64,000 nt of DNA from Candidatus Lustribacter sp. Its GTDB lineage: Bacteria > Vulcanimicrobiota > Vulcanimicrobiia > Vulcanimicrobiales > Vulcanimicrobiaceae. The stretch is from positions 4,672,001-4,736,000 of the forward strand of contig OZ255842.1 in assembly GCA_965277805.1 (NCBI GenBank), read 5' to 3'. The number at the start of each line of letters is the position of its first letter. Position 1 is the first letter of the stretch. Positions 13,701 through 56,209 of the stretch are shown here, in pieces. The notes beneath the pieces are model-generated. The model was not told the DNA's origin. It searched no databases and saw only the letters and a list, made by a program, of their open reading frames with translations. The translations under genes and the position numbers were made by a program.

Positions 13701-16589
13701 TTGGCTTACTCGCAACGGGTGCGCAGCGTCATTACGCTTGCGCTTAGCTTCGCATTTTCTGTCATGAGTTTCGGAGCGGCAATCGCCGCACCGAACCCGC
13801 CTGCGATCGTCGCACAAGCAACGACCGGCACGCTCTCCGGCACCGTGAGGACGCCGGCCGGCGACCCCGTTTCGGGCGCAACGGTGAGCGTTAAAGGCCC
13901 CGCACAGACGAGCGCGACGACCGGCGATGACGGCACGTTCTCGCTCAGTGTTGCTCCCGGTCTCTATCAAGTCATCGTGAACAAAGGCGGTTATCAGCCG
14001 GCGTCGCTCGACGACGTAGCCGTCGTTGCAGGGGCAACGCAACCCGTGAACATCTCCCTCGCAAGCGTCGACCTGTCGACATTGCGCACGATCGGCTCTG
14101 TGACGGCCACCGGCCGCGCCTCGCAGATTAACACCGGCGCCGCCGCGCAGACCTATACCAGCGCCGCGCAATTCGCGCAGTACGGCAGCCCGCAAATCAA
14201 CGACGTGCTACAGCGCACTCCCGACGTCGTGATCCAGAAATTGGGCACACAGGCCGACACTGCGATTGTAGTCGGCGGCCTACAGCCGTACGAGACGCAG
14301 GTGTTGATCGACGGTCACCCGGTGGCGCTCGGGCAGTACGGTGTCTGGTTCAGCCAATACCTGCCGTCATATCTCATCGGTGGGGCAGAGACGGAGTCCG
14401 GACCCGGTAATACGACGCCGTTCGCCAACATCGCGGTAGCCGGTACGGTCAACCTCACGACGCCCGCATTCACAACGAAGACAACGGCGCAAGCCAACTA
14501 CGGTTACGACCAGTATCAATCGCAATTCGGAAACGTGCTCTTAACCGGGTCGGCCGGGAATCTCCAATACGTCTTCGGCGCCGGAACGGCCGGCGACAAC
14601 GGCTATTGGTACAAAAAGTCCGCTTGTGACGTATACGTTACCGATCCCGCGACGGCGCCGAATACGCCCGGCTTTGCGGGCATCGTGCCGTTTTGCGGCG
14701 ATTTCAGCGGCTCGTTCCATTCGCGCGGCTGGCTGGGTAAGCTGCGCTACAACTTCTCATCGGCAACATCGATCGACTTCGGTTTCCTCGGCACGTACGG
14801 CGGGTTTTCGCCGCAAGGTTCGGCTTGGGGTGAAGACTACGGTCCCACGCTGGTCGAGGCTTGCATTCCGGGCACGCTGCAGTGCACGAGTCCGCAAAAT
14901 GCCAACCTGATCGGAACGACGATCCAAGGCTTCTATTGGTTCCCCGGAACCGACATTCAGAATACCCAGCAGATGTGGACCGCCCAATTCCATACCTCGC
15001 TCGGGAGCGATACGATCGTCGACCGGCCCTACCTCGGTTCGCTGCAACCGGAAATCTACGATGGTACCGGTGAGGGCTACTATCCGGCATTCTATGCGCC
15101 GAACGCGACGTACCCCGCCTGCCCGCCGGTCGGCACGCCCATCGCGGCCACGTGCTATCCCGGGCCGCAATCGCTGCCGCCCGGCACGCAGATCCCCGGA
15201 ACGCCGAACAACACGTTCTTGACCGCACCCAACCAATTCGAAGCGACGGCCTGTCCGCCGGGCACGATCAACAGCTTCAACCAGATCAATAGCCCGCAGA
15301 ACACGATCGTCACGGTAAACGGTCAGGAAGAGTGCTTCCAATATCCGTACAGTACGTACGAACAGGACAAGCTCTACGGCAACACGTTCCAGTACGTTCA
15401 TCCGTTCGGCAATAGCGAACTCACCTTTACCTACGATTTCCACGGGTCGAGCACGTTCGCATACGTCAACAATCCGAGCAACTTTGCCGTACCGTTCTCA
15501 TCCACGCGCTTCTCGACGTTTTCGTTGACGGGGTCGCTCGGCATGATCCCGCATCTGACGATCAACTTCGGTCTCTACAACACGCAGTGGACGGCGTCCG
15601 GCCAACAACCGATCTTCGACGTTGCGACCAACGCCATCACCGGCTACGGCCCGCTCGGCCGCAGCGTTTCGCGCTTTGATCCGCACTTTGCGCTCGTATT
15701 CCGGCCGGGCTCCGACACGTCGTATCGTGTTGCAGCCGGCAGCTCCGAGACGTTCCCGTTCGTCGGCGACATCAGCGGTGCCGCGATCAGTCAGCCGCCG
15801 GCGTTCTTGTTCTCGGCCGGCAGCATCTCGCAGAAGAACCCCAACCTGCAGCCCGAGTACGCCATGTCCTACAGCGCGGGCGTTGACCATCGCTTCGGCA
15901 ACGGCTCCATCGCCTCACTCGATCTGCAAGACACGCTCGTGCAGAACGTGTTCCAGCAGTCGACGGTCCTCGAAGTCGTTCCCTACCAAGGTTCGACGGG
16001 TATCCTCGGCATCTTCACGCCGATCAACGTCGCGCGTTTGAATGCCAAGACCGCGACCTTCAAGTACGCCTTCGCGCCGGCCAAGGGCCTTGGCTTCAAC
16101 ATTGCGGCGACGGCCGATAGTTCGGTCATGAGCGGCATTCCGGCGGCGGTGTTCAACGGCAACCCCGGTCTCCCGGCCAACGACGTGCAGGTCTGCGGCG
16201 GTGCCGCATTCACGCCCGGTCTCGCGACGTGTATTCCGTACTTGAAAGGCTACGGTCAAATCACGTATGCGTGGAACGGCGGTGGATTTGCGGAGATCGG
16301 CGCAGACTACGAAGGCAAGAACAACGCCTACTACCAGCCCCCGTTTACGTTCCTCGATCTCTCGGTGAGGCAGCCGCTAACCAAGTGGCTCCAGCTCCAA
16401 GTCTCGGTCCAGAACTTGTTCAACAACAACACGTTCAACTATCTGCCGGCCGCCAACGCAGGCATTCCGGCGGTCGGCGACTACACCCCCGACGGCGTAT
16501 CGATTGCGCAGGGCAGCTTCTCCACGTACCGCCTCCCGGCTCCCACGCGCACGGTACTTCTCTCGTTGCGAGCGCATTTGGGGAACTGA
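13701..16589 (+). CDS. TonB-dependent receptor with N-terminal carboxypeptidase-regulatory-like domain
   Basis: TTG start with SD GGAGGT, signal peptide, GTLSGTV..., plug VLIDG, NPNLQPE, VQNLFN, terminal beta-strand. Confidence 0.85.
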   Translation: MAYSQRVRSVITLALSFAFSVMSFGAAIAAPNPPAIVAQATTGTLSGTVRTPAGDPVSGATVSVKGPAQTSATTGDDGTFSLSVAPGLYQVIVNKGGYQPASLDDVAVVAGATQPVNISLASVDLSTLRTIGSVTATGRASQINTGAAAQTYTSAAQFAQYGSPQINDVLQRTPDVVIQKLGTQADTAIVVGGLQPYETQVLIDGHPVALGQYGVWFSQYLPSYLIGGAETESGPGNTTPFANIAVAGTVNLTTPAFTTKTTAQANYGYDQYQSQFGNVLLTGSAGNLQYVFGAGTAGDNGYWYKKSACDVYVTDPATAPNTPGFAGIVPFCGDFSGSFHSRGWLGKLRYNFSSATSIDFGFLGTYGGFSPQGSAWGEDYGPTLVEACIPGTLQCTSPQNANLIGTTIQGFYWFPGTDIQNTQQMWTAQFHTSLGSDTIVDRPYLGSLQPEIYDGTGEGYYPAFYAPNATYPACPPVGTPIAATCYPGPQSLPPGTQIPGTPNNTFLTAPNQFEATACPPGTINSFNQINSPQNTIVTVNGQEECFQYPYSTYEQDKLYGNTFQYVHPFGNSELTFTYDFHGSSTFAYVNNPSNFAVPFSSTRFSTFSLTGSLGMIPHLTINFGLYNTQWTASGQQPIFDVATNAITGYGPLGRSVSRFDPHFALVFRPGSDTSYRVAAGSSETFPFVGDISGAAISQPPAFLFSAGSISQKNPNLQPEYAMSYSAGVDHRFGNGSIASLDLQDTLVQNVFQQSTVLEVVPYQGSTGILGIFTPINVARLNAKTATFKYAFAPAKGLGFNIAATADSSVMSGIPAAVFNGNPGLPANDVQVCGGAAFTPGLATCIPYLKGYGQITYAWNGGGFAEIGADYEGKNNAYYQPPFTFLDLSVRQPLTKWLQLQVSVQNLFNNNTFNYLPAANAGIPAVGDYTPDGVSIAQGSFSTYRLPAPTRTVLLSLRAHLGN

Positions 16590-36557: not shown

Positions 36558-36829
36558 TTCCCGGTGAAATTTTCGTTCAGGCTGGCGAGGTGGAGCTGAA
36601 GCCCGGGCGCCGCCGCGTCACGCTCACGGTGAGCAACACCGGCGACCGGCCGATCCAAGTCGGATCGCACGCGCACTTCGCCGAGGTCAACAGCGGGCTC
36701 GCGTTCGATCGCGCCGCCGCGCGCAACATGCTGCTCGACATTCCGGCGGGCACGGCGGTGCGCTTCGAGCCCGGCATCGAGCGCCCCGTCGATCTGGTGG
36801 AAGCCGCGGGCGAGAAACGCTTCGCATGA
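36554..36829 (+). CDS. ureB: urease beta subunit
   Basis: [36 protein letters not shown]. Confidence 0.96.
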
Positions 36830-38538
36830 AAATTTCGCGCGAACAGTACGCCCGGCTGTACGGGCCGACGACCGGCGACCGGATGCGCCTCGCCGACACC
36901 GGTCTGATCGTCGAGATCGAACGCGACCTCACCGGCTTCGGCGACGAACTGAGTTTCGGCGGCGGTAAAGTCATTCGCGATGCGATGGGCCAGCATCCGT
37001 CGATCTCGCGCGCCGACGGTGCGCTCGACACCGTCATCACGAACGCGATCGTCATCGACGCCGGCGGTATCTACAAAGCGGACATCGGACTGCGCGACGG
37101 GCGCATCGCCGGCATCGGCAAAGCCGGCAATCCGTACATCATGGACGGCATTACGCCCGGAATGATCGTCGGCGCTTCGACCGAAGCGATTGCGGGCGAA
37201 AGCTTGATCGTCACCGCGGGCGCGATCGACACGCACATCCATTTCATCTCGCCGCAACAGGTCACCGCCGCAATCGGCAGCGGCGTCACGACGATGATCG
37301 GCGGCGGCACGGGGCCCGCATCGGGCACGAACGCAACGACTTGCACGCCCGGCGCGTGGCATCTCGATCAGATGCTGCTGGCCACCGAGTCGCTGCCGGT
37401 GAACGTCGGATTTCTCGGCAAGGGGAATGCGACCGGACTCGCGCCGCTGCGCGAGCAGATCGACGCCGGTTGTCTCGGTCTGAAGCTGCACGAAGACTGG
37501 GGCTCGACCCCACGCGCGATCGACGCCGCCCTCACCGCGGCGGATGAAGCCGACGTGCAAGTGGCGATTCACACCGACACGCTCAACGAGATGGGTTTTC
37601 TCGAAGAGACGATTCGCGCGATCGCCGGCCGCACGATTCACACCTATCACACCGAAGGGGCGGGCGGCGGCCACGCGCCCGACATCATCCGCATCGCCGG
37701 CGAATCGTACGTGCTGCCGTCGTCGACCAATCCGACGCGGCCCTACACCGTCAACACGCTGGCCGAACACCTCGACATGCTGATGGTCTGCCATCATCTC
37801 GATCCGTCGATTCCCGAAGACGTCGCGTTCGCCGACTCGCGCATCCGCGGCGAGACCATCGCGGCCGAGGACGTGCTGCACGATCTCGGCGCGATCAGCA
37901 TGATGTCCTCGGACTCACAGGCGATGGGCCGCGTGCACGAAGTGATCATGCGCACCTGGCAGACCGCGCACAAGATGCGCGTGCAGCGCGGGCCGTTGCC
38001 GGGCGAGCGTGAGGGCAGCGACAACCTGCGCGTGAAGCGATACGTAGCGAAATACACGATCAATCCCGCCATCACCCACGGCATCGGCACGTATGCGGGC
38101 TCGGTCGAGGTGGGGAAGATCGCCGATCTCGTCGTGTGGAAGCCCGCATTCTTCGGCTTTCGGCCCGAACTCGTGATCAAGGGCGGCACGATCGCCTACG
38201 CCGCGATGGGCGATCCGTCGGCATCGATCCCGACGCCGCAGCCCGAGCGCATGCTGCCGATGTGGGGTGCGTTCGGCGCCGCGCCGGCGGCCGGCTCGTT
38301 CACATTCGTTTCGAAGCGCGGCCTCGAGTGCGGGATGTCCGAACGCGTCCGCTCGCGCCGCACGTTCTTGCCGGTGATGAATTGCCGCGCGATCGGCAAG
38401 CGGGATATGGTGCACAACGCTGCGTTACCGCACATCGAGGTCGATCCGAAGACGTACGCGGTGCGCGCCGACGGCGAACTGATGACGTGCGAACCCGCAA
38501 CGGTGCTGCCGCTCGCGCAGCGGTACGCGCTGTTCTGA
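36826..38538 (+). CDS. ureC: urease alpha subunit
   Basis: [62 protein letters not shown]. Confidence 0.98.
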
Positions 38539-53068: not shown

Positions 53069-53132
53069 TGCAAGACAAAACGTACATCGGTACGAAACAC
53101 GGCGGCAAGATGCGGCGTGCGAGAATCGGGGA

Positions 53133-53726
53133 ATGAGAATAGGGTTCTCTTTCCTGCGCACGCTCGCCGGCGTGACCTCGGCGGTCGTTCCGTTCGCAAT
53201 CGCCGTCCATCTGTTCGCTGAAGGGCTCGCGCTCGGCGCGAGCGCGATGGCGTCCGATTTCTGGCTGCGCCACGCCTACTTGCTTGCGCCGCTCGCCCTC
53301 TCGCTGTGGTCGTTTAGCCGCACCGTCGGCCTCGGTGCCGGCCGTACGGAGATGATCCGGCGCTGCGCGTTCGTGCGCGCGCGCCTGCGGGCCGCCGGCG
53401 CGAGCTCGACCGTCGTTGCGTTCACCGTCTCCAACCTGATCTTCTTCGGCATCACGCAGTTGCTCGAAGGCGTACCAATCGCGACGACCTCGATCGGCAC
53501 CGGCCTCACTGCGGCCGTGCTCGGCGCGCTGTTTTCCGCGCTGGCCATCTTCTTTTGGGGCCGCTCACTCGTCGCTACCGCGCTGGCCGCGGCCGTGCGG
53601 CGCCCGCGCCTGCCCGCGCGTCTCGCGTCCACGATCCGGCGCATCATCGCTGCCCCGCGTGCGGCTGCGAGCACGTTCTCCCTGTTCGTCCCGAATCGTC
53701 CCCCGCCGGCTTCGTCCCCGGCCTGA
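53133..53726 (+). CDS. multi-TM hypothetical protein with C-terminal RPPP (candidate arrest-peptide leader of the TBDT)
   Basis: About 4 hydrophobic helices with His in the first two (VHLFAE, RHAYL), a basic linker, and the ending FVPNRPPPASSPA 35 nt before the TBDT start. Confidence 0.7.
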   Translation: MRIGFSFLRTLAGVTSAVVPFAIAVHLFAEGLALGASAMASDFWLRHAYLLAPLALSLWSFSRTVGLGAGRTEMIRRCAFVRARLRAAGASSTVVAFTVSNLIFFGITQLLEGVPIATTSIGTGLTAAVLGALFSALAIFFWGRSLVATALAAAVRRPRLPARLASTIRRIIAAPRAAASTFSLFVPNRPPPASSPA

Positions 53727-53756
53727 TCTCAACCACAACTTTCATTTAAGGGGACG
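53713..53756 (+). promoter_or_regulatory. anti-SD/SD pairing that could occlude the TBDT ribosome-binding site
   Basis: CGTCCCC (53713-53719, with another copy at 53697-53703) is the exact complement of GGGGACG (53750-53756), which covers the TBDT SD. Confidence 0.5.
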
Positions 53757-53761
53757 TTCCC

Positions 53762-56209
53762 GTGGGTATTTTTCGACGTGCGGCGCGCATTGCGCCGGCA
53801 CTTTGCCTTGTTTGTATTCTCTGTCTATCCGCCTTCGGAAGTGCGCTAGCGCAATCGACGGCATCGCTCTCCGGTCAAGTGACCGTCAACGGTCAGCCCG
53901 TCAAGGGCGCCAACGTCACGGCGGTCGGCAGCAACGTATCGTTGCACGTCCTCACCGACGCGCAGGGGCACTTCACGTTCACGGGCGTGCCGATCGGCAC
54001 GTACGACGTCGACGCGAACGCGCCCGACGGCACCGCATCGCTGCGCGTCGACGTGCCGTCGGCGGGCGCAGTCATCACGATCGGCCTCTCCGGTCTCAAG
54101 GAGATCGGCCGCACGTCGGTCATCTCGCATCCGCCGCTGGGCGGATCGGGGACCGATCTCAACCTCAGCAGCGACGTGCTCACGCACTCGCCGGCCAACG
54201 GCAGCCTGCCGAACTTGCTCTTGCAGCTCCCCGGTGCCGCGCGCGGCGCGAACGGGGTCGTGCACATCAACGGCGATCACGGCGACGTGAACTACATCGT
54301 CGACGGCGTGCCGATTCCGCAAGAGCTCAACCGCAACATCGGAACGGAGTTCGACCCCAACGACCTCGCGTTCATCGAAGCGATCGAAGGCGCATATCCG
54401 GCGCAGTACGGCGAGCGTTTCGCTTCGGTTATCAACGCCAACACGCGCAACGGCGCCGGCGCGCCGGGTATCAACGCGCAATTCGATGCCGGGTCGTTCA
54501 ATAGCTTCGATTCCGACCTTTCGTACCACGCACCGATCGGCACGGGTTCGCTGGTCCTGGCGTCGCGCAACGAGCAGAGCTCGCGCGGGCTCGATCCGCC
54601 GAACCCCGGCTCGCCGCACAACGGCTTCAGCAACACCAACCAGTTCCTGCGCTACACCCAGCCGATCGGTACCGACTTTCTCAACCTCACGCTCAGCCAC
54701 GCCTATCAAACCTACCAGATCCCCAACGACACCGACGGCGGCGAACCGGCCGCAACCGACGACAACGAAACGCAGAACGACTTCTTCGGAACGCTGCAGT
54801 ACCGCCATCCGATCGGCGATCACGGCTCGCTCACGTTGGGGCCGACGTACAAACGCTCGCAGATCCGCGATTTCGGCGATCCGAACAACGACTTCATCTA
54901 CGGTGAAGCGCAGAATCCCGGCGCGCCGGCGGACTGCGCGCTGGCGTTGAGTTCTACCGGCCCGATCGTGGGCGGCATCGTCACGAACCCCGTGCCGAAT
55001 CCGGCCGTCGCGTACTCCAACGCGACGTGCGGCTTCTCGCTCTACGGCAACCGGACGGCGATCGACCTCGGCGGCGTGCTCGACTACGACAACTCGAGCC
55101 CGCATCACGACGTGCGCTTCGGCGGCGTGTACGACGCGACCAACGTCGCGAAAGACTACGAGATCACGCTGCAGCCCGGCAACTTCCTCGCCCCGATTTT
55201 CACTCCGGCCACGCCCGGCGCCGCGTATACCGTGATCGACAACGCACCGAACGTCGGCCATCTCACCGCATTGTATCTGCAAGACTCGTGGAAAATGGGC
55301 GCCTACGAGCTCGACTACGGCCTGCGTCAGGATGCCTTCCTCGTGTCGTCGACCCAGTTTGCGGTCGGCTACGCCCAAACGAGCCCGCGTATCAAGCTCA
55401 CGCGCAACATCGGCCCGCGAGCGAGCGTATACGTGTTCTACGGCCGTTACTTCACGCCGTTCTCGCTCGAGAACGTCTCGCCGCTCGCGGCGTACACGTT
55501 GAATCTGCCGCTGCAGACTTCGGTCGCGCAGTTCGATCTCAAACCCGAGCGAGACTCAACCTACGAGGTCGGCGGACACGTCGGCATCGGCAAGGGCGAT
55601 CTCGGCTTACGCGTGATGCAGAAAGATGCAACCGACCTGATCGACGATACGCAAGTGGGCGTGACGGCCTTGCATCAGGACATCAACTACGCGCAGGGGC
55701 GCATCGCAACGCAATCGGCGTACTACCAGCTCGGCTTCGGCCAAGGCAGCCGCGTCTACGCCTCCGCCACGCACACGTACTCGGTGAACAAGGGCTGCGA
55801 AACGCAACTTTTGGCGCCGTGTTTCGGTCAGCCCGACGATTGGACGCCGGCCGATCACGATCAGCGGGTCGACATCTCATCGGGAATCATCGCCAACGAA
55901 CGTAACGGCGGGTGGTTCGCCTTTGACGGCGAGTACGGCAGCGGTCTATCGACGGGGCTCAACCCGACCGGCGGCATCACGTGCGCGGGACCGGGCTACA
56001 CCGCGAACATCGGCGGACCGTGTAAATTCACGCCGCATCTGACGTTCGATGCGGAAAAGGGTGTGCCGTTGGGAACTGGGGTCGTGTTGACACTCCGGAT
56101 CCAGAATCTGCTCAACGATCAGTATCAGGTGACCTACCTCAACGCGCAGGGCAACCATTACGCGCCGCCCCGCACGTTTCAAGTCGGTCTCCGCATCAGC
56201 GGAAAGTAG
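53762..56209 (+). CDS. TonB-dependent receptor (possibly metal-specific)
   Basis: Signal peptide, N-terminal carboxypeptidase-regulatory-like domain, plug H.NGDHG...YIVDGVP, GAYPAQYG, YLQDSW, LKPER, DHDQR, IQNLLN, PRTFQVGLR. Confidence 0.9.
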   Translation: MGIFRRAARIAPALCLVCILCLSAFGSALAQSTASLSGQVTVNGQPVKGANVTAVGSNVSLHVLTDAQGHFTFTGVPIGTYDVDANAPDGTASLRVDVPSAGAVITIGLSGLKEIGRTSVISHPPLGGSGTDLNLSSDVLTHSPANGSLPNLLLQLPGAARGANGVVHINGDHGDVNYIVDGVPIPQELNRNIGTEFDPNDLAFIEAIEGAYPAQYGERFASVINANTRNGAGAPGINAQFDAGSFNSFDSDLSYHAPIGTGSLVLASRNEQSSRGLDPPNPGSPHNGFSNTNQFLRYTQPIGTDFLNLTLSHAYQTYQIPNDTDGGEPAATDDNETQNDFFGTLQYRHPIGDHGSLTLGPTYKRSQIRDFGDPNNDFIYGEAQNPGAPADCALALSSTGPIVGGIVTNPVPNPAVAYSNATCGFSLYGNRTAIDLGGVLDYDNSSPHHDVRFGGVYDATNVAKDYEITLQPGNFLAPIFTPATPGAAYTVIDNAPNVGHLTALYLQDSWKMGAYELDYGLRQDAFLVSSTQFAVGYAQTSPRIKLTRNIGPRASVYVFYGRYFTPFSLENVSPLAAYTLNLPLQTSVAQFDLKPERDSTYEVGGHVGIGKGDLGLRVMQKDATDLIDDTQVGVTALHQDINYAQGRIATQSAYYQLGFGQGSRVYASATHTYSVNKGCETQLLAPCFGQPDDWTPADHDQRVDISSGIIANERNGGWFAFDGEYGSGLSTGLNPTGGITCAGPGYTANIGGPCKFTPHLTFDAEKGVPLGTGVVLTLRIQNLLNDQYQVTYLNAQGNHYAPPRTFQVGLRISGK

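Follow-up and report, generated by a model that had tools for sequence, protein, structure and literature searches.

A polytopic membrane leader ending in an RPPP motif as a candidate cis-acting arrest sensor for a TonB-dependent receptor gene in Vulcanimicrobiota

Introduction

Arrest peptides that sense conditions outside the cytoplasm are a young topic, with CruR described in 2022, CutF in 2023–2025 and a survey of RAPP and RGPP motifs in 2025, and the question that these papers state as open is how the signal crosses the membrane. The subject of this analysis is a two-gene cassette in a stretch of 64,000 nucleotides (nt) from Candidatus Lustribacter sp. (assembly GCA_965277805.1, contig OZ255842.1, positions 4,672,001 to 4,736,000 of the forward strand), hereafter called the window, whose own numbering is used throughout. 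In this cassette, a gene for a 197-residue polytopic membrane protein with a C-terminal Arg-Pro-Pro-Pro (RPPP) motif, hereafter the leader, is followed by a gene for a TonB-dependent receptor (TBDT). The leader is probably a cis-acting arrest sensor that resembles CruR, CutF and SecM in action and is non-homologous to the DUF2946 family; a pause at RPPP would open a hairpin that masks the Shine–Dalgarno sequence (SD) of the receptor gene, and ligand-dependent release would close it. It is a real, conserved gene, and its family preserves the motif and the position of the motif, the linkage to the receptor, and a covarying anti-SD/SD helix. A preliminary description of the locus had already proposed an arrest leader that unmasks the SD of the TBDT gene, which is the best-supported reading, and had added an argument for nickel from a urease operon, for which no support was found; each comparative check that it had suggested favoured its reading.

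Comparison with described arrest systems

CruR (Bp2923) of Bordetella pertussis is described as a DUF2946 protein of 145 residues that is exported with a signal peptide and carries a CXXC pair 45 residues before a RAPP motif (PMC9426467). The motif is required for the expression of the downstream transporter, CruR senses metal, and its own mode of control is reported to be Rho-dependent termination across a 162-bp spacer (PMC9426467). Like CruR, the leader is the first gene of an operon with a TonB-dependent transporter and carries a C-terminal R-x-P-P a few residues before its stop codon; unlike CruR, it has four membrane helices, no Cys pair, a 35-nt spacer and an SD-sequestering helix. None of 29 members of the leader family matches DUF2946 (PF11162) even at E ≤ 10, which sets the family apart from that of CruR, as the preliminary description had suspected, and the best DUF2946 match in the whole genome (14.2 bits, below the cut-off of 23.7) lies in a frame with stops. 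A CXXC or CXXXC about 45 residues before the motif, as in DUF2946 proteins, is absent from the leader, which has no Cys pair, and in place of a single N-terminal export signal four helices are predicted; what the leader family does have in common with DUF2946 proteins is a C-terminal RAPP or PPP a few residues before the stop, in a gene that heads an operon with a metal-related gene.

CutF of Rhodobacter capsulatus, also a DUF2946 protein, shares with the leader a C-terminal PPP motif and is described as sensing the periplasm by means of a nascent chain not yet released from the ribosome (bioRxiv 10.1101/2025.02.05.636593). It is a secreted, single-domain protein with Cys ligands that controls a multicopper oxidase, and metal induces its stalling, according to a detoxification logic (bioRxiv 10.1101/2025.02.05.636593). 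The leader, in contrast, is a polytopic bundle from an unrelated family, and because its target is an uptake receptor, a sign opposite to that of CutF is expected.

The 2025 survey reports that RAPP and RGPP arrest translation both in vitro and in vivo, including in four-transmembrane (four-TM) Streptomyces proteins and in CruR, and that toeprinting of the CruR RAPP places the third and fourth motif codons in the P and A sites (PMC12992588). The Streptomyces lividans proteins SLIV_18480, SLIV_27375 and SLIV_33595, as well as SLIV_33605, resemble the leader in having four TM helices and a C-terminal arrest motif, and they are described with conserved His/Cys/Met clusters and a same-strand, metal-related downstream gene (PMC12992588). 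TonB-dependent receptors were found to be enriched downstream of RAPP/RGPP open reading frames (ORFs), but the ORFs that precede such receptors in the survey are almost all signal-peptide proteins, and its search covered RAPP and RGPP only (PMC12992588), so that a family with about 90% RPPP would have been largely missed. In what the survey describes, neither an SD-hairpin mechanism nor covariation was found, and its proteins are set beside the leader family by description only. The leader family shows sequence-level marks of RAPP-like arrest peptides as a class, namely a conserved motif within the last ~15 residues (60/60 loci), a membrane segment, and a downstream gene on the same strand.

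SecM of Escherichia coli, which controls secA, offers a parallel to the hairpin; it arrests at a C-terminal RAGP, its stalled ribosome melts an SD stem-loop, and a pulling force releases it. SecM, as described, monitors secretion and is degraded after release, whereas the leader, a polytopic protein, is conserved and has what looks like a ligand site, and its downstream gene encodes an outer-membrane receptor. The uA_LPPP peptides of Planctomycetota likewise carry X-P-P-P within their last 15 residues and stall with the third codon in the P site; peculiar to them are their position upstream of secA, their signal peptide and their diverse N-terminal sequences (PMC10987492). Among X-PPP sequences, RPPP is reported to be the strongest staller in E. 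coli assays and to be under-represented in the E. coli proteome (PMC4176338).

Both four-TM RAPP proteins and arrest leaders that sense metal ahead of a TonB receptor gene are thus already in print (PMC9426467; bioRxiv 10.1101/2025.02.05.636593; PMC12992588). The novelty proposed in the preliminary description stands for the family itself, which is unpublished, and falls for RAPP/RGPP ORFs before TonB receptors and for four-TM Streptomyces RAPP proteins, both of which appeared in 2025 (PMC12992588). Full-text searches of the published literature, with the supplementary gene lists of PMC12992588 (which might contain the family's RAPP members) outside their scope, returned no paper that deals with the leader family, with TonB receptors preceded by RPPP leaders or with Eremiobacterota arrest peptides. 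What is new here is the family, non-homologous and polytopic, in which RPPP predominates and the SD-masking helix is unusually well supported.

The leader gene and its C-terminal motif

The leader gene (53133..53726, plus strand) is defined by translation, homologs, AlphaFold2 modelling and hydropathy. It starts with an ATG at 53133, encodes 197 residues ending in ...FSLFVPNRPPPASSPA (F-S-L-F-V-P-N-R-P-P-P-A-S-S-P-A), and stops with a TGA at 53724–53726, five codons past Pro192. The protein comprises about four membrane helices (residues 14–38, 45–65, 90–112 and 118–146), a basic linker of ~45 residues, and the candidate arrest motif Asn188-Arg189-Pro190-Pro191-Pro192 (53694..53708, plus strand), which is delimited by conservation and assigned to the P and A sites by analogy. 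The receptor frame of 815 codons (53762..56209, plus strand) begins with a GTG at 53762, 35 nt past the leader stop, with AAGGGGA ahead of it.

The motif was followed through 60 complete loci, comprising 29 from the first genome search, 20 more that include a second taxonomic family, and 11 found from the receptor side. R-[P/A/G]-P-P is present in 60/60 of them, down to ~26% protein identity, as RPPP in 56, RAPP in three and RGPP in one, and it is also present in L005, a locus truncated by a contig end. Locus L021 comes from a genome (G231) marked as unpublished, and the likewise unpublished genomes G233, G276, G345, G128, G330 and G360 count only in the 401-genome tallies given below; no conclusion rests on unpublished genomes. 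Among 108 full-length representatives, 96 carry RPPP, 11 RAPP and one RGPP. In the 150 representatives listed, x-RPPP occurs in 116; the remaining 34 comprise fragments and proteins with RAPP, RGPP or LPPP, the last at the motif position in two. The RAPP and RGPP proteins are true members of the family, in that they keep His26, Glu30, His47 and Glu112 and hold the motif in the same alignment column, and members of this kind with a TBDT gene downstream are found at L094, L100, L104 and L106; for the 'DRAPP' subgroup, no locus was found in the metagenome scan.

The distance from the start codon to the Arg codon is 182–194 codons, and the residues after the motif are free in sequence, with a tail of 2–13 residues in 104 of the 108 full-length representatives and of 36–38 residues in the four in which the stop is lost. 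At L003, L006 and L011, where loss of the leader stop extends the frame by 36–38 codons into a 67-nt overlap with the TBDT start, both RPPP and the anti-SD are kept. The C-terminal motif thus reads, from its pattern of conservation, as an arrest motif and not as a part of the protein structure. By analogy with the toeprinted systems, the pause would be expected with Pro191 (53703–53705) occupying the P site and Pro192 the A site, and we infer from the same analogy that the motif would stall the ribosome of Candidatus Lustribacter.

A six-frame scan of the genome, which is 95% complete with 5.9% contamination by marker genes, yielded 209 ORFs with R[APG]PP no more than 15 residues from the stop, 82 of which are 50–320 residues long. 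By a heuristic filter on G+C content at the three codon positions, a coding-like GC3 > GC1 > GC2 pattern is seen in only two of these 82, the leader in the window and a second leader at locus L099, and both encode polytopic membrane proteins that head an operon with a TBDT gene.

Family distribution and linkage to the receptor

Searches for relatives of the leader returned 103 proteins as 90%-identity clusters and 172 as 50%-identity representatives (profile search, E ≤ 1e-3). The leader has no Pfam or NCBIfam family over the cut-off. Of the 27 genomic records, 23 are metagenome-assembled genomes of Vulcanimicrobiota/Eremiobacteraeota (Candidatus Lustribacter, Velthaea, Elarobacter and Baltobacteraceae), three stand under another taxon's name, and one is labelled 'uncultured bacterium'. 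Across 401 genomes of the phylum, a broad profile finds the leader in 95, including 68/296 in the family of the window and 26/30 in a second family, and in none of the 19 other families sampled within the phylum; a narrower profile finds it in 60/401. The leader family is restricted almost wholly to Eremiobacterota/Vulcanimicrobiota. A 191-nt contig from a soil metatranscriptome library falls inside the leader gene (window 53435–53625) with three differences (98% alike), which is a weak hint, resting on an assembled contig in which carry-over of DNA is possible, at transcription of the gene or of its copy in a close relative; such a contig is silent on transcript level, ends and pauses.

The gene downstream has the domains of a TonB-dependent receptor, with an N-terminal CarboxypepD_reg domain (PF13620, 44.5 bits), a Plug domain (PF07715, 24.7 bits against a cut-off of 23.9) and a C-terminal barrel region to which only sub-threshold NCBIfam matches were obtained (TIGR01786, residues 472–641); the matches single out no substrate subfamily. 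It is the gene proposed to be regulated. A homolog of the window's receptor (P0002) lies directly downstream of the leader on the same strand in 29/29 and 20/20, that is 49/49, leader-first loci, the match at L095 being partial (tblastn), and the Arg codon is 56–139 nt from the TBDT start, with the start codons in relatives set by frame, SD and alignment. All-against-all clustering of the neighbours in 27 named loci revealed no conserved neighbour besides leader and TBDT. The tandem duplicate leaders that neighbour clustering suggested proved to be antisense shadows of an upstream gene. TBDT orthologs (E ≤ 1e-80) occur in 233/401 genomes of the phylum, and when 20 TBDT loci were taken from genomes in which the first profile had found no leader, the broader profile found one in 11.

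In the window, the cassette is flanked on the minus strand by a gene for a major facilitator superfamily transporter upstream and one for a solute-binding protein downstream; as both flanking genes are oppositely oriented, the unit consists of two genes. The genome contains 18 Plug-domain genes. A second one (TBDT) within the window lies at ~14142–14414, and its linkage to the cassette is not seen in relatives.

The anti-SD/SD helix

CGTCCCC occurs twice towards the end of the leader gene, at 53697–53703 in the Arg189–Pro190 codons and at 53713–53719, and its complement GGGGACG (53750–53756) lies over the AAGGGGA SD. The preliminary description had the frame, the 35-nt distance, both copies and the complement right; of the two copies, which it treated alike, the second is the anti-SD conserved in the family, and the first consists of the invariant Arg–Pro codons and pairs in few relatives. 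In the minimum-free-energy (MFE) and centroid folds of the window's junction, CGUCCCC (53713–53719) pairs with GGGGACG (53750–53756), while CCCGC (53702–53706) and GG (53708–53709) pair with CCGUGGG (53760–53766), so that the GTG start is predicted to be masked too. The 5' strand of this sequestering structure, placed by both folds and by covariation, spans 53702..53719 (plus strand), and the receptor gene's ribosome-binding site spans 53748..53766 (plus strand), with the SD AAGGGGACG (53748–53756) and the GTG (53762–53764) both paired in the predicted free mRNA.

The same arrangement is predicted throughout the family. Over 49 loci, the predicted unpaired probability of the SD averages 0.15 and is below 0.3 in 40/49, and the MFE folds give 257 of the 294 SD bases a pairing partner. 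With R standing for the Arg codon's first base, which puts the P-site codon at R+6, the partners of the 257 paired bases lie at R+12..R+23 in 198 cases, at R-18..R+11 in 45 and at or beyond R+24 in 14. The main class thus falls 6–17 nt ahead of the P-site codon, in or at the mouth of the mRNA channel, and 243/257 partners, between R-18 and R+23, are within reach of a paused ribosome.

When the junctions are set side by side, the bases just past the Pro codons change together with the receptor SD, in arm pairs such as GTCCCC/GGGGAC, GGTCCCT/AGGGACC, GGATCCCTTC/GAAGGGATCC, CTCCTAGAC/GTCTAGGAG, GCTCCTAA/TTAGGAGC, CTCTCCAAGTC/GACTTGGAGAG and TCTCCCCGC/GCGGGGAGA. In a permutation test over the 49 loci, the pairing of each 5' window with the SD of the same locus was compared with its pairing to the SDs found elsewhere in the set. 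For the tail window (R+9..R+32), the own SD gives -14.24 kcal/mol against -8.99 kcal/mol for the others, a value that 0/20,000 permutations reach, and it is among the three best partners in 26/49 loci; an earlier round with 29 loci gave -18.3 against -12.8 kcal/mol (0/20,000). The controls are flat, at -8.42 against -8.56 kcal/mol (13,571/20,000) for R-90..R-67 and -8.58 against -8.58 kcal/mol (9,841/20,000) for R-150..R-127. The window R-15..R+8, which covers the Asn-Arg-Pro-Pro codons and the bases before them, shows a small effect (-9.5 against -8.4 kcal/mol; 10/20,000), because sub-groups have their anti-SD there; in L088–L093 (the 'F-R-Y-R-P-P-P' subgroup) and L029/L086, it falls within the Arg–Pro codons or directly before them and not in the tail, with arms such as CGTCCTC/GAGGACG or TTCTCCATCGCGA/TCGCGATTGGAGA, and it is still within the footprint of a paused ribosome.

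When 14 junctions were aligned with plain MAFFT, the share of paired cells was 70.8%, compared with 39–58% for slid partners, and 5/7 pairs change on both sides. RNAalifold recovered only three pairs from that alignment, since the arms of different rows are one column out of step, and was replaced by the duplex and permutation tests and by a covariance-model alignment; a second MAFFT alignment was out of register and was not used. In the covariance-model alignment of 20 junctions, which is fitted to the structure and so leans towards it, 7/7 pairs change on both sides with a score of 0.308, compared with 0.166 +/- 0.024 in shuffles (0/500 reach it) and 0.08–0.15 with slid partners. As judged from these comparisons, the SD-pairing helix is conserved through compensatory change across the family, and it shows the two features of an SD-sequestering stem-loop of the SecM/secA and CutF/cutO type, a compensatory helix and a 5' arm within reach of the paused ribosome.

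The spacers of L016–L030 and L077–L096 contain, in addition, a GC-rich hairpin nested in the loop of the anti-SD/SD helix, followed in some by U-rich runs. This nested hairpin, which is absent from the subgroup of the window, may be a stabiliser of the long-range helix or an attenuator.

Membrane domain and candidate ligand site

The AlphaFold2 model of the leader (mean predicted local distance difference test score, pLDDT, 80.9) contains helices at residues 18–39, 48–65, 71–88, 90–112 and 118–155 and a low-confidence tail. The loop charges (K+R) of 2, 0, 6, 0 and 8 are consistent, by hydropathy and the positive-inside rule, with a four-helix topology with the N-terminus inside; helix 2 (45–65) is weakly hydrophobic, and its membrane call rests on the AlphaFold2 model and the positive-inside rule. 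Under this topology, loops 39–44 and 113–117 would fit a periplasm-facing position.

An alignment of 56 sequences that reach down to 26% identity keeps Pro20, His26, Glu30, His47, Tyr49, Glu112, Gly113 and Arg189-Pro190-Pro191-Pro192 unchanged throughout. On the four-helix topology, His47 and Glu112 would lie at the periplasmic ends of helices, and His26 and Glu30 in the outer half of helix 1. Together, these four residues, encoded at 53208..53222 (His26–Glu30, H-L-F-A-E), 53271–53273 (His47) and 53466–53468 (Glu112), all on the plus strand, likely form a site for a ligand, putatively a metal, in that half of the bundle which faces the periplasm. The roughly four TM helices and the His residues in helices 1–2 on which the preliminary description had remarked are borne out, His47 standing at the start of helix 2. 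Its statement that the leader has no CxxC is true of the window's protein and not of the family, since a Cys-Pro-x-Cys follows directly after Glu112-Gly, 71–86 residues before the Arg, in 12/108 full-length representatives.

No similar PDB structure was found for the model with Foldseek (E ≤ 0.001). The two nearest clusters in the ESM Atlas are the leader's own Vulcanimicrobiota clusters, and as leads only, a third cluster (score 0.94) is mostly Actinomycetota and the nearest named cluster is DUF6412 (0.82). The leader falls outside the ZIP transporters (PF02535), with a sub-threshold match over residues 14–44 in 1/29 members (E 0.015; 15 bits against a gathering score of 35.1). Its H-x-x-x-E-G-L-A-L-G presumably recalls the ZIP helix motif, a likeness that we take as a lead only.

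Proposed mechanism and alternative explanations

In the proposed mechanism, the polytopic inner-membrane leader would double as a cis-acting translational switch for the TBDT gene behind it. In free mRNA, the 18 nt from the Pro codons to just before the stop (53702–53719) would pair with the SD and the GTG, leaving the receptor untranslated. A ribosome translating the leader would pause at Arg-Pro-Pro-Pro with Pro191 in the P site, and its leading edge on the anti-SD would keep the hairpin open, so that a second ribosome could start on the receptor gene. At the pause, the four membrane helices would be outside the ribosome and insertable, with ~45 residues of basic linker spanning the exit tunnel. 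Since helix 4 ends ~45 residues before Pro191, the whole membrane domain would be outside the ribosome at this point, and since it would already be outside, the domain, and not the insertion of a single helix, would be the likely source of the releasing force. The pause would be longer or shorter according to the state that the membrane domain is in. Binding of the ligand, a divalent transition metal most probably, at His26/Glu30/His47/Glu112 would compact the bundle, pull on the nascent chain and free the arrest. After release, termination would follow five codons on and the hairpin would re-form, giving negative feedback of the imported substrate on receptor synthesis. The sign would be as in CruR: without ligand, a long pause, an open SD and receptor synthesis; with ligand bound, release and a closed hairpin.

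Several observations weigh against this mechanism. The 7-mer CGTCCCC is within chance (the window holds 13, shuffles 13.9 +/- 3.6), and the fold of the window's junction (-25 kcal/mol) reaches only z = -2.07, 6/200 shuffles being equally good; these two measures are weak alone, and it is the comparison with relatives that lifts the pairing above chance. When a stall is modelled by keeping the mRNA single-stranded as far as 14 nt beyond the P-site codon, the mean accessibility of the SD rises only from 0.15 to 0.36 and exceeds 0.5 in 8/49 loci, and at the window's own locus it falls from 0.33 to 0.10; this result depends strongly on the assumed ribosome edge, and the model admits alternative pairings that may not form in time. 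The genome encodes EF-P, which normally resolves PPP pauses. The TBDT is found in 233 of the 401 genomes and the leader in 95, and the broader profile detects no leader within 1.2 kb upstream in 9/20 sampled TBDT loci (L109, L110, L112–L117 and L119; orthologs ~52–62% identical), so that the receptor must be regulated differently in many genomes. Finally, a protein of 197 residues in which intramembrane positions are invariant may also serve a separate function, and a ribosome terminating at the nearby stop would also open the helix, so that plain coupling explains part of the design.

Ordinary translational coupling, in which the leader would be a working inner-membrane partner (a small permease, reductase or chaperone) and RPPP structural or merely slow, is nevertheless unlikely. 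The invariant intramembrane His and Glu residues and the confident fold do suggest a stable functional protein, the weak ZIP-like motif points the same way, in most loci the stop falls within the anti-SD or directly behind it, where any terminating ribosome opens the helix, and the modelled stall adds only modest SD exposure. Coupling, however, leaves unexplained why R-x-P-P, with the P/A/G interchange of proven arrest motifs, is invariant beside free following residues, and why motif and anti-SD persist where the stop is lost; the anti-SD, placed 6–17 nt past the predicted P-site codon in 198/257 cases, is tied to the motif and not to the stop. The two can also coexist, as a sensor may transport as well.

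A signal other than a ligand would leave the arrest device itself intact. That the leader, like SecM and MifM, reports membrane-insertion capacity (Sec/YidC load) or EF-P activity is quite improbable, although PPP pauses are EF-P-dependent (PMC4176338), CutF is reported to require EF-P, and membrane insertion is the classic arrest-releasing force (bioRxiv 10.1101/2025.02.05.636593). The regulated gene encodes an outer-membrane uptake receptor and not a component of Sec/YidC or EF-P, and the invariant His and Glu residues, with the Cys pair of a subset, point to ligand chemistry. As nascent-chain force profiles indicate, moreover, helix 4, ~45 residues before the P site, should already be inserted at the pause.

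Transcriptional control, in which the pause would guard the transcript from Rho or from an intergenic intrinsic terminator and the SD pairing would be secondary, is highly improbable. It has a precedent in the Rho-dependent termination of CruR (PMC9426467), and the GC-rich nested hairpin in the spacers of many distant relatives, with U-rich runs after it in some, would suit an attenuator. The spacer is, however, short, at 35 nt here and 12–58 nt in the first 26 stop-keeping loci against 162 bp in CruR, which leaves little room for Rho loading and favours translational control; the nested hairpin is missing from the window's own subgroup, a terminator scan found no terminator-like site in the window's spacer, and the feature that covaries is the SD pairing itself. 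Chance, arising from the inherent complementarity of Pro codons (CCN) to a G-rich SD in a genome of 64% G+C, can hardly be the explanation, since, for all that the 7-mer is unenriched, the single-sequence z is only -2.07 and the Asn-Arg-Pro-Pro codon window prefers its own locus only slightly (-9.5 against -8.4), the conserved partner lies past the Pro codons in non-conserved codons that co-change with the SD, and the own-versus-other permutation gave 0/20,000 with flat controls.

If the arrest sensor proposed here is taken further, the leader family may exemplify a phylum-restricted class of co-translational transmembrane sensors, in which the whole four-helix bundle with its His and Glu (in some, Cys-x-x-Cys) ligands would fold in the membrane while tethered to a ribosome arrested at R-P-P-P and read the imported metal in the periplasm, binding would mechanically free the arrest and the SD hairpin would close. 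The existence of a second, unrelated polytopic RAPP leader in the same genome would suggest that polytopic arrest sensors are a convergent and general means, independent of DUF2946, by which outer-membrane bacteria place uptake receptors under post-transcriptional feedback; this extension is tentative and, as a whole, doubtful.

Ligand hints, upstream elements and a putative second leader system

The nickel ligand proposed in the preliminary description, which had pointed to a urease operon with no Ni transporter, is unsupported. The urease alpha gene of the window (~36826–37191) is 16 kb away and is unlinked to the cassette in relatives, where only leader and TBDT are conserved neighbours, and the genome carries a NicO-family Ni/Co transporter gene at another place; a search of the genome for HupE/UreJ was negative. 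A divalent transition metal in general is hinted at by two findings, a palindrome upstream of distant leader relatives and a second leader cluster in the window's own genome.

In the distant relatives L016–L028, a 7-1-7 palindrome, TGCGAAT-N-ATTCGCA, ends 3–4 nt before the leader start codon, and the gap contains no SD. Three genomes of one genus (L041, L042 and L038) have an almost identical box ahead of an operon of Fur-family and TroA-like (MntC/AztC/ZnuA-like) genes, which suggests that the palindromic box is a Fur-family operator, perhaps on a leaderless or very short-leader mRNA. No exact copy of the palindrome occurs in the window, and the window's own genome has only a loosely similar element before a TroA-like gene.

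The region upstream of the leader in the window (53075..53132, plus strand), which is common to its closest relative L002, is a candidate promoter or operator and includes another palindrome, CGTACATCGGTACG (53081–53094). The corresponding position in L002 reads CGCACATCCTTGCG, which means that both arms of the palindrome change together, and it could be an operator or an RNA hairpin. A promoter scan found no sigma-70-like promoter upstream of the leader.

The second leader of the genome, L099 (G000:C1 2659545–2665069, minus strand), is a 224-residue polytopic ORF (L099:5399–6070) with a Met-rich loop and the C-terminus ...GRGLRAPPSFVR-stop (G-R-G-L-R-A-P-P-S-F-V-R). The gene order is leader, CusF-like (PF11604, 34.6 bits), TBDT paralog (27% identical to P0002), TroA-like binding protein and Fur-family gene, and the genes behind the leader include a metal ATP-binding cassette importer. 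The two leaders are not detectably related (hhalign probability 0.2%). L099 looks like a second arrest-leader system, possibly for copper.

Significance

The family offers a natural experiment in three respects: one invariant motif alternates between RPPP, RAPP and RGPP; a short, covarying anti-SD helix holds a fixed position relative to the pause site; and a compact four-helix domain presents four invariant polar residues to mutate. It also indicates that surveys restricted to RAPP and RGPP miss RPPP-dominated families. Were the locus to work by ordinary coupling instead, it would still be a conserved two-gene cassette with an SD-masking helix. Eremiobacterota (Vulcanimicrobiota) are a soil and peat phylum known mostly from metagenomes, and the arrest sensor described here, if true, would be the first regulatory mechanism proposed for it.

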